From Chara braunii (Eukaryota > Plantae > Charophyceae): DNA of 64,000 bases. The notes beneath the pieces are model-generated. The model was given only the letters and a program-made list of their open reading frames with translations. It was not told the origin of the DNA and searched no databases. Position numbers and translations under genes: made by a program. The stretch is taken from NCBI GenBank assembly GCA_003427395.1, contig BFEA01000012.1, positions 59,479-123,478 on the forward strand. Direction: 5' to 3'. This document shows positions 2,941 through 31,308 of the stretch, piece after piece. Position 1 is the first letter of the stretch, and each line of letters begins with the position of its first letter.

Positions 2941-3196
2941 CGATCACAAACCCTCGATGAAGAAATTATTCGACCTTAGCTGTCGGCACAAATACCCTTA
3001 CAAGGGTAGTTGCAACGGGGCGCACTGGTTGTGAGAGAGAGAGAGACGGCCAATCCACAAACAGTAACCGTTGTAGGCACCCTCATCATGACTGTATCTT
3101 ACCCAAGTCGTCACCTGCATACGTAGGAGTCAATACAGGTGGCTATTTGGGTCAGATATGGTAATGATGAGGGTGCCTACGAGACGTGAAGTGGCA

Positions 3197-3256
<60 letters not shown>

Positions 3257-4004
3257 ACATGGATGTGACACGTGGTAGGAGGGCTGACCATGGTCAAAGC
3301 AGCGAAGGTGAGGCCTTTAAAGTCACCGATTGCGGGGGCCAGGGGTAACGGCCGTGCGCCTCGGGTGTGATAGCTGGTGTGCCCCGCAGTTGTAAACGCT
3401 GCCCGGTTCTCCACGCAGGTGGTGTGGGAGTTCAGCGGTCGTGGGTTTGACCGATAGGCCAAGATATGGTCTTGGTGAGCTTTGGCAGGCCCGGGCTGGG
3501 TGGGGATGCCATTCATACTAAATGCTGCACTGGCTAAATTCAAACTTAGGCCTAGCTCTGTTGGTTACGACATTGGAGTTTCAAACACAGGTGTAAAGAC
3601 CAAGACCAGCAGGCAGCGACAGAGCAATTGAGTGTGAAAGGAGAAACGTGAGAGGTTGAGGATGCCGCGGGACTATCCCCTTTAGTTTTGCCCCTAGACC
3701 CATTGCTGGTCTGATGACCGGGACCACGGGGGTGCCAACGGGACCCCCTTCCCTTCTTTTATTTTTATTTGTATGTCGATTTTTGTTTCCTTTTCTTCTC
3801 TCTCCACTTTTGGGACCCGGGCCCAGTACTGGTCCCGGGACCGGCAATGAAACCAACGACCTTAGCTCAGTTTGTTACATTCTTGAACTGTTGAAATATA
3901 TGCCTGAATTCGAACTGAACAAGAGGCAGGTGAGTAAAACAATGCAATCCGGAGTCTCCTGGGCCCGATCAGATTTGGAAGTCCCATGTACGGAACTGAG
4001 GACT

Positions 4005-4078
4005 GTCCTTTGGGGTATTCGTGAAATTGGGAGGACAGGACACAGAGAAGATCGGCATGGATCCTGCTTGTGGACAAT
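4005..4078 (+). ncRNA. Degenerate U6-like segment inside X1
   Basis: gtcctttgggg...gtgaaattggg...cacagagaagatcggcatgg; 17/20 match to the U6 core tacagagaagattagcatgg. Confidence 0.65.
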
Positions 4079-26310: not shown

Positions 26311-26679
26311 ATATGCCATAAGAAAGGGGGACATAAAAGGGAAAAAGAACTGAGTGACTTAACGAACTACTTGGCTCAAAAATGATGTGGGATTGCGAGA
26401 GATGTTTGGTTGTGCATGCTTTGGGCTCTCACATTGGGGCATCTTTTGAATAGGTTAGTTGTTTTAGATGCTCGCCGAGAGCTGGAGCTATAGGTAGATG
26501 AGATGGATGATGGGAGGGAAGCTTGGGGCAGGATAGGACTGACCCTGCTAGGAATTAGGATCAGTGTCAGCTCACAATCTCATCTAGAGGTCGTGTAGAA
26601 TATCGCTGATTCTACTTACCAAGCAAGTGTCAGAAGTTAGTCCCAAGTATAGTTTTGCTTGGTCTATCTATTTTCAGCT

Positions 26680-26900
26680 TTGTAGAAATCTTGGCAGCCT
26701 CCTGTTCCTACGGGAAGCGCTGTCGAAATTTCTACAAATCTGAAAGAGTTAGTCAACTTTGGGACCATATGAATTCTGAAAAGACACTTTTCCTACGGGA
26801 AGCGCTGCCGAAATTTTGTAGAATTTAGGGAGAGTATTTCTGGCTATGAGAAACTTGGCAATCCACCCTGAGTAGGGGAGATGCTGCTGAAATTCTCCGT
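26680..26900 (+). repeat. Second array in X3
   Basis: tacgggaagcgctg.cgaaattt twice plus a degenerate third copy; reverse-complement homolog of 15517-15915. Confidence 0.75.
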
Positions 26901-29900
26901 AACTTGGCATCAATAAGGGAGGCTGAAAGTGAGGTTAGTAGAGGAGTTAGTCTATGAGCTGGAGCATGTTCTCCACTTGGAGTGAACATAGTAGTGGCTC
27001 TCTTTGACCCGTACTGTGATGCAGGTTTTCACATTCGATTGAAGGCTCGAATTGTTCGGCCTGATTCTACGAAAGGATCATTCTTCTGTTATCACTGATA
27101 ACAGGTCGGTTGCCGATTCGTCGGTTTACTACTCAACTTTCCAACTTCTCCTGCCTCTCAACCTAAGGCCTTCGCCCTTGCCAGGATTTATGTGTTTCTT
27201 TGAGTTTTCACCGAATTTCTTTATAAATGGCCATTTCGTAAAGACTGAGTACTTTTGTTGAGGCTGGGTGGGGAAATGGTTGGACTTGTGGGCATAAGGC
27301 AGGGTGTGAGCCGCAGAAGGCTGAAAAGTTGACCCCTTTAGTGTGTGTGATGCTGTTTGAATGTCGGATGAATGCAGGTATGTATGGGAGGAACTCGATT
27401 AAATATGTGGTGAATGATTATGTCTTGAGTTCAAATGAGCAAACCACACGACTGTCGTGAGAGTGAACTACCCCACAACCTTTTGTTTGAGTGAGATTGT
27501 CTTTTCCCATCCTGATAAAGTGATAGTCAGAGTGGGTGTACACACGGGTAATCAGGTTTTCACCTGCCAGCGTCAAGTACTCGCTTTTTCTTCTTCCTTA
27601 TTGTAGATTGTTTTGGTAGAACGATAAAGTTCCGGGCGGAAGGATTAACGTGTCGCTGGTGATGCGCCAGACAACTCACCACCGCTCCAAATTCCTTCCT
27701 GTCCTAGGGACCAATCTTACCCGCACCCTTTGGGATGCGCCGACATCACGATTGCTTACGCAAATCCGCATCGTTGGTCGGTATGCGTAGATTTTGCGTC
27801 CGCGCGGATTTATGTTAACCCATGCGCGTGACACTTACCAATTTCTGCGCTCGAAAGTTATGGGACGAGCGAAGAGGGCAAGCGCGCGTCACGGCTAGTA
27901 GACCCAAGTTTCGGCAGCGCGAAACGACGCAGGAGCAAAGGAATAAGCCTAGTCGGCCTATGGGGACCCATGTACGAGCCTCCAAAAGTCTCAAACATCG
28001 GGTTGCCCGTGGGTTTGAGTCTGAGCACCATCCGCACGCATCTTTCGCGTTGGCCTACCCTTCCCTTTTGGAACAACTATCAGACTATCTGCAGTCGTTT
28101 CCTCCTTAAGGTCTTCATGGTTGGACGTTGTAGTCCGTGGTAGCCGTCAAAGTCAAACCCCTTGATTTTGGCTACCACGACAACCCTAAAGCTGTCTACT
28201 CAACCCCTTTGCACAGGGTGCAGAAGAGGGTGTGGTCTTCAACCGCACATGGCGGTTGTCTGACGTCGAGAGATTACCCCTCAAAGCGCCTGTCAGCTGA
28301 CACTTCAGTGTCGAACTCGACCCTCGAGATTATCAAGGGCCGCGAGGTTACGAGTACCACATAGTACCCCATCACCGCGAATGCTTGCGTATGCCCGCAT
28401 GGCTGGTTGATATGAGGAGGCCATGCACTCGCACAACTCTTATACAAAAATCCAGCACGCGATACCTATCTGAGTCTTACGGCACAAAGTTATGGGTCGG
28501 ATACTGAAGGACTAGGAGTATTGTGGTGTTGTGGCGTCGTTTATGGTGTCTATCTTGTGTATCTCTGTATGTTATGTGGGGGTAGATGTGAGTGTTGTGG
28601 TGTACGCGTAGTATGCGTGATGCGTCCTAGTCGACCGGCGCCGAGTCGCGTTTGGGATCTCAGCCCCCCAGAACGTCGATTCGCGTACGGGTTCGATTTT
28701 CGGGCGTCCGACCGCACGTAACCCCCTATGCTACAGCGAACGAGAAACGCCCTCGGCTTGTCCACCTCTGCAATTGCATACGAAAAGCTTTCGCATGTGG
28801 TTCAGTAGCTCGACAGGGATACGCCCACCTAAGGGGTGGTGACAGCTCCCGCAGGCGGAGGTAAGCGGTGCCTCGCGTGACCCTGTCCTGTCGTAGGGGC
28901 TCGCGAGAGGTACGGTTGGCGCACTCGGCCGGAGCGGCAAACGCTCTCCGCGACAAGTCCTGCATAATCCTGCGTGACGTGGCCGGGAGGGTCCCCGTGC
29001 GGGACCGATGCGCTCGACACCGCAACACCTAACCGGCGCCCTTATCACAAAATCTAACTGCGCCACCAAACTCGCAACATTGCAAAACTCCCGTTTTGGA
29101 TCCTTCCTTGCCCGATTTCGTTGTGGAATGGCAAGATGCATGCTTTTTCACTCTCGTCTCCTTCTTTCCAAACATTTTTCGCGATATCCTTGCGCGCCCC
29201 GTTTCTCCATTAACCCAATTCTACTAACCCATCATCAAAACTGAATCTACAACGAATTCGCCAAGCCAAATAACCCCTAGTTCATATCTTCCCTCACCCG
29301 ATTTCGTCAAGAGTCGGGCGAGTTATTCATCTTTCCTTCCACCATTCTCCTTTGTTGCTCCGCCATCGCTACACTTTCTACACACTACTTTCTCTACTAA
29401 CCTCATAATCTATTAATCTAGCACTAAAACTAACAATGAATTTGAATTCGCCTGCGTCCTAAACCCCAATTTAGACTTTTCCCCGCTGAAACCGCCCTCC
29501 AAATGAGTGAGAACCGCCTTTCTTCCTCCTCACCATACTTCCCCAACACTCCTTTTTCATGGACGCATCCGGCGTGAAATTGCGCCTCGATTCATTCCTT
29601 CTTTCCCAGCACCGTACTCCCGTTTTCTTCCTTTACCCCGCCTCTATAGCCATTTTTTTTATCCCTTCAATGTTCCTACCGACCCGCCTGATTTCGTCAC
29701 GAATTGGGTAGGAACTCGAATCCTCTTCCCCCACGCTTCCGTCTAAGTCCGCCATCTTCGTCCGCATTTTTCGATTGCACCTTGGCGCGGATCCCACACA
29801 GGTTGATTCGTTTTTTTTTCTTCCTCGATTTACCTTGCTGCTTTCTGCACTCTTCTGTCCTCGACTTGGTGGCTGTCCCCTCCTCCTTCGTTGTCGGTCG

Positions 29901-31308
29901 CTTCCTGTCTGCGCCTAGGCACAACCCTACTTCTGTTGTGCAAGGTCGCACCTCCTCTACTCCCCTCCTTCCTGACTAGCGTTGCTTTCCATCAGTGGCC
30001 AACTACGCAGTGCTCCTCTCTCGATAACTGTCCAGCGGCCCCACAACGGCCGACTGTCTCAAGAAGCCCGGAAACGACCGGCGACTAGGCGGCCCAAAAA
30101 CCCACCGCTCTTATACTCAAGTCCCGACGGACAAGCTGCACTGCCGTGCTGCCGCAGCCTTCGCCGTGGTATCAAAGGCTCAATGCGCGTATTGGGCCTA
30201 CCACGCCCGTGGCCAACTCTTTTCGGGCCCCGAAGGCATACTCCCTCCCCCTCACGACTCTCTCTGCAGGCCGTGGCTCACGGGCGGTGTACCTCTTGGC
30301 TCGGATGGGCATACCCTCTCAACCTCTTTACAGCCAGTCAGCAGTTGGCGGACGACGCACCCACCGAAGGTCCCCCCCGCTGAGGTTTTACCTAGGTCAA
30401 ATGCACCACCAACTCGTATGCACATTGAACTCCTCGGTCCATGCTTCAAAGCGGTCAAAATAGAAAACCTTGCCAGCATCCCGATCATGCAAGGGACCCG
30501 TAGGTCAGCCAAAGGAGCGCGCTCTCAAGACCCTCGGCCGCCGTGACAACCTTTAAATCCGGCATCTCACCCGAGTAAGGAACGCTAGAATGCAAAGATA
30601 ATACTTCAATAAATAATAAAAAATTTAGAAACCTTTAATCGCCATATATGTCGAACGAGGAAAAGAGAGGCGCTAGCACCGTTCTAATGCCGCTGCCGAC
30701 AAACCAAAGGGGGATAGCCCCGCCGGGCCCTCAACCCCTCGGTCCCTTTGCGCTACTCTGATATCCCCGCGTAGCCGCTGCTCGATCTCGATCCCTGAAT
30801 CTCTTTGATGAAAGTCCAATGTCGTAACCAATAGTGCTAGGCCCGAGTTTGGGTCTAGTTTTGACGGATACCTAAATAGACCGATACTGTGCGACGCACA
30901 AACCTACCGAAACATTTTCGGAACCACATTGTTGTCGACGTCGTCCTCCGCACGTACGCACAAGTCACAGGCAAGCGCATCGATCAACGAGACCTTATCT
31001 TTTTAATCCTGGTGTAATAAAAAATAAAGATTTGGCCGGCGACCAACGCCGACTTTCACAATCATCAAAGGGAGAACAAATCATGCACGCCTCAAGTATG
31101 CGCGCCCACACACTCTCTTACTCTAGTCCACGCGCGCCTGAAGTATGCGCGCCCACACACTCTCTTACTCTAGTCAACAATTCAGCCAATCGTAAACCAC
31201 AGACACTGCCGCATCTCGCGCGATATACCTAAACTTTTAAATCAAACATATTTTCTGTTACTTGCAAAAACTAGGGCGGATACCCTTGTAAGGGTATTCG
31301 CACTGACA

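Follow-up and report, generated by a model that had tools for sequence, protein, structure and literature searches.

Giant TGTCR...CGACA insertions with hairpin arrays in Chara braunii, probable solo long terminal repeats of a Ty3/gypsy-type lineage

The stretch of DNA analyzed here, the window, comprises 64,000 nucleotides of the charophyte Chara braunii (contig BFEA01000012.1, positions 59,479 to 123,478 of the forward strand) and is a repeat-rich scaffold with 12 runs of N. It holds three diverged copies, X1, X2, and X3, of a very large element, together with R, a chromovirus-type long terminal repeat (LTR) retrotransposon in which one of these copies lies. All positions are those of the window.

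Three X copies and an unfilled target

The X copies and R are laid out as follows.

2981 to 8887, forward strand: left 5.9 kb of X1; R interrupts its hairpin array, and an 82-N gap lies at 5347-5428
8888 to 32298, forward strand: R, with its 5' LTR at 8888-10216 and its 3' LTR at 13374-32298, the latter carrying X2 and X3
13795 to 19071, reverse strand: right part of X2 (element coordinates 2290-7566)
19072 to 29019, forward strand: X3, a complete copy of 9948 bp with TGTCG...CGACA ends, collinear with X2 and X1
29020 to 31308, reverse strand: left part of X2 (element coordinates 1-2289)

When the window is compared with itself, 13795-17713 matches 24571-29019 in reverse orientation. X3 is nested in the non-conserved middle of X2, which is in turn nested in the 3' LTR of R. 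For comparison, X2 was joined from 13795-19071 and 29020-31308 and reverse-complemented, which gives a length of 7566 bp after removal of X3, and X3 was taken as 19072-29019. BLAST aligns X2 with X3 over 10 collinear high-scoring segment pairs of 71-92% identity, the last 710-749 nt being 72% identical; six such pairs join X1 to X3 and three join X1 to X2. The right terminus of X1 was not found in window searches with the right-end 12-mer described below, with the hairpin, and by similarity. Since R inserted in the last hairpin of the X1 array (insertion point 8883-8887), X1 has no right end at the expected place; its traces apparently resume past R, with ~80 nt followed by a second-array unit at 33991-34062.

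R itself is well delimited. Its LTRs are 1.33 kb long, 90-94% alike, and read TGTGGCATAC...GTATGCAACA, with TGTGG...AACA ends and palindromes close to both LTR termini. Segment 8886-9324 matches 13373-13796 at 90%, and segment 9800-10216 matches 31882-32298 at 94%. A polypurine tract (PPT), AAGGAGGGGGGGG at 13361-13373, directly precedes the 3' LTR, and a sequence resembling a primer binding site (PBS), TGGTATCGGAG, which we take to be of the initiator-tRNA type, lies at 10220, three nt past the 5' LTR. The element is flanked by a perfect 5-bp duplication, TCTAG. An open reading frame (ORF) at 13004-13345 encodes a chromodomain (Pfam E = 1.7e-4, below the curated cut-off). R is probably non-autonomous, since it has an internal part of just 3.1 kb with two long ORFs (346 and 308 aa) that lack Pfam matches.

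The following sites and motifs define the ends of X2 and X3.

9319 to 9322: unfilled target GCGT in the 5' LTR of R, by alignment the empty-site paralogue of the X2 insertion
13791 to 13794: target duplication of X2, copy GCAT, one transition from GCGT
31309 to 31312: target duplication of X2, copy GCGT
19068 to 19071: target duplication of X3, copy CCGT
29020 to 29023: target duplication of X3, copy CCGC
19085 to 19099, forward strand: left subterminal palindrome ACCCTTACAAGGGTA of X3, 13 nt from the end

The two LTRs of R offer a direct comparison. The empty site in the 5' LTR reads GGA GCGT TGAAAGAG, and the filled site in the 3' LTR reads GGA GCAT (TGTC...X2...GACA) GCGT TGAGAG. Because the 5' LTR keeps the unfilled target, insertion of X2 at GCGT with a 4-bp duplication is shown, one copy of which has since been altered by a CpG-type transition, and X2 therefore arrived later than R. 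R came first, X2 second, and X3 third, unless X2 moved with X3 already inside.

The termini are consistent among the copies. All three left ends start with TGTCG or TGTCA, and both right ends are CGACA. The palindrome ACCCTTACAAGGGTA is also found exactly at 2994-3008 in X1 and at 31281-31295 (reverse strand) in X2 and nowhere else in the 64 kb, three exact occurrences against a chance expectation of 0.12. On the other side, the 12-mer ATGCGCTCGACA is exact only at 29008 (forward) and 13795 (reverse), and both right ends close with ...GGGACC-N-ATGCGCTCGACA, with a GGTCCC/GGGACC hairpin beside the end that has a loop of 5 nt in X3 and of 14 nt in X2. Both ends of X share the same layout, a 5-nt terminus, 8 nt, and a palindrome with a 6-bp stem. 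The inverted terminus amounts to 5 bp only (TGTCG/CGACA), and the ends are asymmetric. No terminal inverted repeat (TIR) was detected beyond these 5 bp, local alignment of the left 400 nt with the reverse-complemented right 400 nt scoring 15-16 (shuffle mean 18), and self-BLAST of X2 and X3 (word size 7) found no terminal direct repeats, only internal tandem arrays.

Together, these findings show that each X copy is a discrete insertion with TGTCR...CGACA ends. A preliminary description of this DNA had proposed as much, and its essentials hold: the collinear BLAST matches confirm three diverged copies at these positions; X2 and X3 do have both ends and 4-bp duplications with one mismatch each (GCAT/GCGT and CCGT/CCGC); and self-BLAST and end-to-end local alignment agree with it that an internal LTR pair and long TIRs are lacking. 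Its reading of the TG..CA ends and 4-bp duplication as integrase-type insertion is supported, for X2 directly by the unfilled paralogous site.

Conserved modules, hairpin arrays, and variable middles

Between their ends, the X copies alternate conserved modules with unrelated sequence.

8399 to 8887, forward strand: hairpin array of X1, six hairpin cores, the last cut by the R insertion
13795 to 14504, reverse strand: conserved right end of X2, with a hairpin at 13808-13833
15595 to 15908, reverse strand: second array of X2, 2.6 copies of a 123-nt unit
16253 to 16924, reverse strand: hairpin array of X2, six hairpins
19854 to 19873, forward strand: paired ATTGG block of X3, inside a conserved block of ~160 nt
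20236 to 24570, forward strand: variable middle of X3, with no alignment to X1 or X2, low summed contig depth, and a G>C skew of 0.20
25357 to 26313, forward strand: hairpin array of X3, 11 hairpins, their cores conserved and their basal stems covarying
about 26676 to 26833: counterpart in X3 of the second array
28298 to 29019, forward strand: conserved right end of X3, sharing identical blocks of at most 45 nt with X2, with a hairpin at 28990-29006

The paired ATTGG block recurs at 3558-3577 in X1 and at 30815-30834 (reverse strand) in X2, so that it is present in all three copies, 474-782 nt from the left end and followed by a T/A-rich stretch. The second array and the conserved right end are common to X2 and X3. 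Folding of the right ends (28620-29019 and 13795-14195) gives a consensus in which the last 10 nt pair with the fully conserved GTTGGCGCA ~115 nt upstream, a sequence whose beginning is a TGGCGC motif such as occurs in primer binding sites; since the fold draws on two sequences with just two compensatory pairs, we rejected it as evidence.

The hairpin arrays are the most remarkable of these modules. The apical part of each hairpin is conserved, with the loop TA(A/G)GTT, whereas the basal stem varies in sequence yet stays complementary. Among the 11 hairpins of X3, pairing holds in 95.5% of cells, both sides have changed in 7 of 12 pairs, and the covariation score was reached by none of 500 shuffles. 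When 22 hairpins from the three elements were analyzed with RNAalifold, 8 of the 11 consensus pairs showed compensatory changes, scores that are inflated by kinship since the units are paralogues within elements. Because the stems differ yet stay paired, these patterns argue for selection on a single-stranded (RNA) form. The forward strand as written is weakly indicated as the hairpin RNA strand by 31 G-U against 11 A-C cells, of which a G/T-rich composition alone predicts ~62% G-U. Scans of metagenome contigs with the hairpin core and with the left end returned no matches for either. Kept in three very diverged copies, the arrays are a testable candidate for a cis-acting RNA signal of a retroelement.

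The middles, 3-4.3 kb long, are non-homologous between copies. All three copies nevertheless show a G>C skew of 0.17-0.27 on the same strand, the non-homologous middles included, which fits a history as one strand of a transcribed retroelement. A 127-nt segment at 50842-50968, just past the 3' LTR of the Ty3/gypsy element described below, resembles part of the low-copy X2 middle (element coordinates 2978-3099) at 72%.

Abundance was gauged from contigs of four DNA runs under one organism label, 115,000-121,000 per run, which aligned at a likeness of at least 80% to 13300-31400. The figures that follow are from one run, in which 120,780 contigs aligned over 18.1 kb, and are summed contig depths, which do not equal copy number. 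Conserved modules had depths of 1,257-10,773 at 8 of the 10 listed positions and of 56,713 and 241,774 at the others, the last of which, beside a GT insertion, is presumably simple sequence. Middle bins (18132-18735, 20548-21151, 22964-24171, and 29608-30211) had depths of 25-48, and contigs identical to the window had depths of 6-9. The conserved modules thus recur in very large numbers, the middles in small ones. Differences between contigs and window were mostly transitions (1,706 against 702 transversions).

As for coding capacity, only 2 of the 145 ORFs of at least 70 aa across 2981-31308 had Pfam matches, neither being a mobility domain of X: one is a low-complexity DUF3915 match over a (TC)n run, the other the chromodomain belonging to R. 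A tblastn search with 11 transposable-element protein pieces from the window found no gag, protease, reverse transcriptase (RT), RNase H, integrase, or long interspersed nuclear element (LINE) remnant in X (best E = 0.05), and no gene for an integrase-like transposase without RT was found within the window. The long ORFs at 23317-23844 (reverse), 30028-30543 (forward), and 6063-6563 (reverse) all lie on the C-rich strand and are mutually unlike; they are presumably an effect of base composition. We also rejected a conserved coding region in X, since translated matches, in all frames and on both strands, occur only where the DNA itself matches.

These results refine the shared module order that had been described for X. 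The terminal palindrome, paired ATTGG block, and hairpin array stand in all three copies, as do the second array and right end in X2 and X3, and the reported lack of any RT, integrase, or transposase remnant is confirmed by Pfam and tblastn. Two of the modules are not supported. For the supposed antisense peptide-motif region, translated similarity follows DNA similarity rather than frame or strand. For the supposed U6-like segment, which we rejected, Rfam gave no U6-like match within X at E<=1, the only trace being one 14-nt identity in X1 alone. Two full-length U6 small nuclear RNA matches do lie outside X, at 2457-2562 (forward) and 32764-32864 (reverse), with 65 and 71 bits against a gathering score of 44, each of which precedes an X left end and points the same way as that end; a partial match is found at 32559-32603 (reverse). 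The second U6 sits in a ~261-bp tandem unit (32559-33058) between 22-nt inverted repeats (32383-32404 and 33899-33920), and this arrangement may be a TIR element carrying U6-derived units.

Solo LTRs and the alternatives

The preliminary description offered two options, exceptionally large solo LTRs or an LTR-less unit mobilized by an integrase in trans, and the evidence leans toward the first. We consider it probable, at roughly 0.6, that X1, X2, and X3 are solo LTRs of a Ty3/gypsy-type lineage with LTRs of 7.5-10 kb. X has the features of a Ty3/gypsy-type LTR, namely TG...CA ends with TGTNR, a short inverted terminus, a 4-bp duplication, within the 4-6 bp of such LTRs, and no coding capacity. 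Several points favor this reading. The asymmetric ends, with a 5-bp inverted terminus and no TIR, form the pattern of an LTR (U3/U5) and not of a cut-and-paste element, and the TGTNR start is the pattern of Gypsy LTR starts, as described in the excerpt of PMC2836005 used here. R and a Ty3/gypsy element at 40515-50604 have the same end style, with a TGTNR start and a palindrome near the LTR start. In the latter element, which has TGTGA...TGCA ends, the LTR start carries the palindrome GAGGCACAAGGCCTC, and the target duplication is 4 bp long, CTTT, so an integrase that duplicates 4 bp exists in this genome. X has no coding remnant, as solo LTRs should have none, and both its strand skew and its covariation of RNA type are in keeping with a retroelement. 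The high repetition of the conserved modules also counts in favor of this reading.

On this reading, a full element (LTR-PBS-gag/pol-PPT-LTR) would have been reverse transcribed and inserted by a retroviral-type integrase with 4-bp staggered cuts, and recombination between its two very long LTRs would then have left a single LTR retaining the duplication. Very long LTRs should readily recombine to solo LTRs. The terminal sites would be those of the integrase, the ATTGG (CCAAT) block a promoter or enhancer, and the hairpin array a structured region of the genomic RNA; the right 450 nt, which are strongly conserved, would also be a functional part of the LTR, and the variable middle would be free to turn over.

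Some observations weigh against solo LTRs. None of the five X ends in the window adjoins a PBS or PPT, and no X pair around an internal region was seen within it. A search of the window for PBS motifs gave good matches only in R and in the gypsy element at 40515-50604, with a one-mismatch motif at 40468-40479 (reverse) that does not adjoin a TG end, and in a search for PPT-TGTC only the PPT of R was convincing. The copies of 7.6 and 9.9 kb exceed the LTR size range of "from 80 bp to more than 5 kb" quoted in an excerpt of PMC3485330. An ATTGG promoter in the orientation used here would leave an R-U5 portion of 6-9 kb; if X runs in the opposite orientation, the layout becomes canonical, with a huge variable U3, a promoter, and 0.5-0.8 kb of R-U5. 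The targets GCGT and CCGT resemble the CCGG/CCGT preference of Ginger1 (PMC2836005, excerpt), and low-copy middles with high-copy ends could mean a cargo-carrying element.

The last two points lead to an alternative that we regard as unlikely, in which X is a non-autonomous, LTR-less DNA element moved as double-stranded DNA by a Ginger1-like, gypsy-integrase-related transposase acting in trans. Such a transposase would recognize the TGTCR termini, perhaps also the palindromes 13 nt from the ends, and prefer SCGT targets. The 4-bp duplication and TGTNR termini are as in Ginger1, and both X ends share one layout and lie apart from any PBS or PPT (0 of 5), while the middles are variable, low-copy, and cargo-like. 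The targets, GCGT for X2 (from the empty site) and CCGT/CCGC for X3, can be set beside the CCGG (75%) and CCGT/ACGG (24%) of Ginger1 in the excerpt of PMC2836005, a suggestive comparison over two sites. The same excerpt requires TIRs of 40-270 bp, however, and X has 5 bp; a single protein would not read both end palindromes, whose sequences differ. Furthermore, Pfam and tblastn found no transposase remnant in X, and the strand skew and RNA-type covariation fit a retroelement better. As of 2019, Ginger was unreported in plants and GingerRoot absent from charophytes, as far as an excerpt of PMC6839031 states. The fuller version of this idea, a gene-less, LTR-less family of 7.5-10 kb that a gypsy/Ginger1-type integrase moves as DNA, preferably into SCGT targets, and that has selected RNA hairpins and swappable middles, is doubtful to the same degree. 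If LTR-less X were real, it would be the first DNA transposon family of the green lineage mobilized by a Ginger-kind integrase, giant and non-autonomous.

Less probable still is that X represents a new type of retroelement that is non-coding, is copied via RNA, relies on a gypsy integrase for insertion, and never has an LTR pair, its hairpin array being a packaging signal that hijacks the particles of autonomous elements. The arrays kept with compensatory changes in all three copies, the common strand skew, the lack of an LTR pair in X, and the high repetition of the copies would all suit it. LTR-type reverse transcription, however, needs repeat (R) regions, a PBS, and a PPT to rebuild the ends, and none of these was found inside X. 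To our knowledge, without an LTR no mechanism restores the promoter-proximal sequence that lies upstream of the start site.

Finally, it is very improbable that the X copies are not real units and look alike by chance or through chimeric assembly of unrelated repeats. The scaffold does have runs of N, and the middles are patchworks of pieces found elsewhere in other contexts. Even so, the copies have exact common boundaries, the empty-site comparison holds, and the 15-nt left motif has three exact occurrences where 0.12 is expected. Zero-difference contigs, from DNA runs that may be the sample behind the assembly, also extend from X2 over both junctions, reaching 25-27 nt into X3, less than the 31 nt of the bridging rule.

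Neighboring elements and known systems

The Ty3/gypsy element at 40515-50604 contains gag, protease, RT, RNase H, and integrase pieces in several frames, between LTRs that are 97% alike and interrupted by N gaps, with the PPT GGAGGAGGGAA and the PBS-like sequence TGGTATGGGAGC. The best matches of its RT/RNase H ORF (47251-47835) are Chara braunii proteins, at 80-87% identity for most of the best dozen. A LINE-type element lies at 53893-57272 (Exo_endo_phos, E = 4.8e-11; a weak zf-RVT match; a 530-N gap inside). The segment 57992-59310 has ~60% GC; long ORFs of 363 and 341 aa overlap there on the two strands, with no Pfam match. A 158-nt dispersed repeat unrelated to X is found at 1378-1535 and 37406-37558, with 82% identity between its copies.

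If the X elements are LTRs, the quoted upper size of LTRs would be roughly doubled. Standard LTR finders with a lower maximum LTR length would miss LTRs of 7.5-10 kb, which, again if X elements are LTRs, would help explain the large "unclassified" repeat fractions in charophyte genomes. If X instead has no LTR partner, it would reveal integrase-type DNA mobilization without LTRs or TIRs in a relative of land plants. Our literature searches, which excluded the Chara genome paper, Repbase, and Dfam, found no published description of X elements.

Among known systems, the closest likeness is to the solo LTRs of long-LTR Ty3/gypsy elements such as Ogre and Retrosat2, which share with X the TG..CA ends, TGTNR start, short inverted terminus, 4-5-bp duplication, lack of an ORF, internal tandem arrays, and great abundance (PMC3485330, excerpt; Ogre figures as cited there). 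X differs from these in its size, 7.6 and 9.9 kb against "more than 5 kb" in that excerpt, and in its hairpin array with covarying stems, and it is known here from unpaired copies. Ginger1 likewise has a 4-bp duplication at CG-centered sites (CCGT), TGTNR termini, and known non-autonomous copies, and was described from animals, with complete elements of 2.6-7 kb; X, by comparison, lacks TIRs of 40-270 bp, has asymmetric ends, and yielded no transposase (PMC2836005, excerpt). The clusters of microRNA hairpins in foamy-virus LTRs, described in an excerpt of PMC3993851, are comparable as structured hairpins in LTR-type sequence, whereas the stems of X measure only ~8+4 bp and have no Rfam match. 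Maverick/Polinton elements were considered and rejected, since X is without a 6-bp duplication, long TIRs, and polymerase and integrase genes. Large retrotransposon derivatives (LARDs) and terminal-repeat retrotransposons in miniature (TRIMs) are non-autonomous LTR retrotransposons with an LTR pair, a PBS, and a PPT. Like X, they are non-coding and reliant on gypsy proteins in trans, and they can be large. We rejected X as a complete element of this type, since it has no terminal direct repeats and no PBS- or PPT-like site at the expected places, but X could be the solo LTR of a LARD/TRIM-type element.

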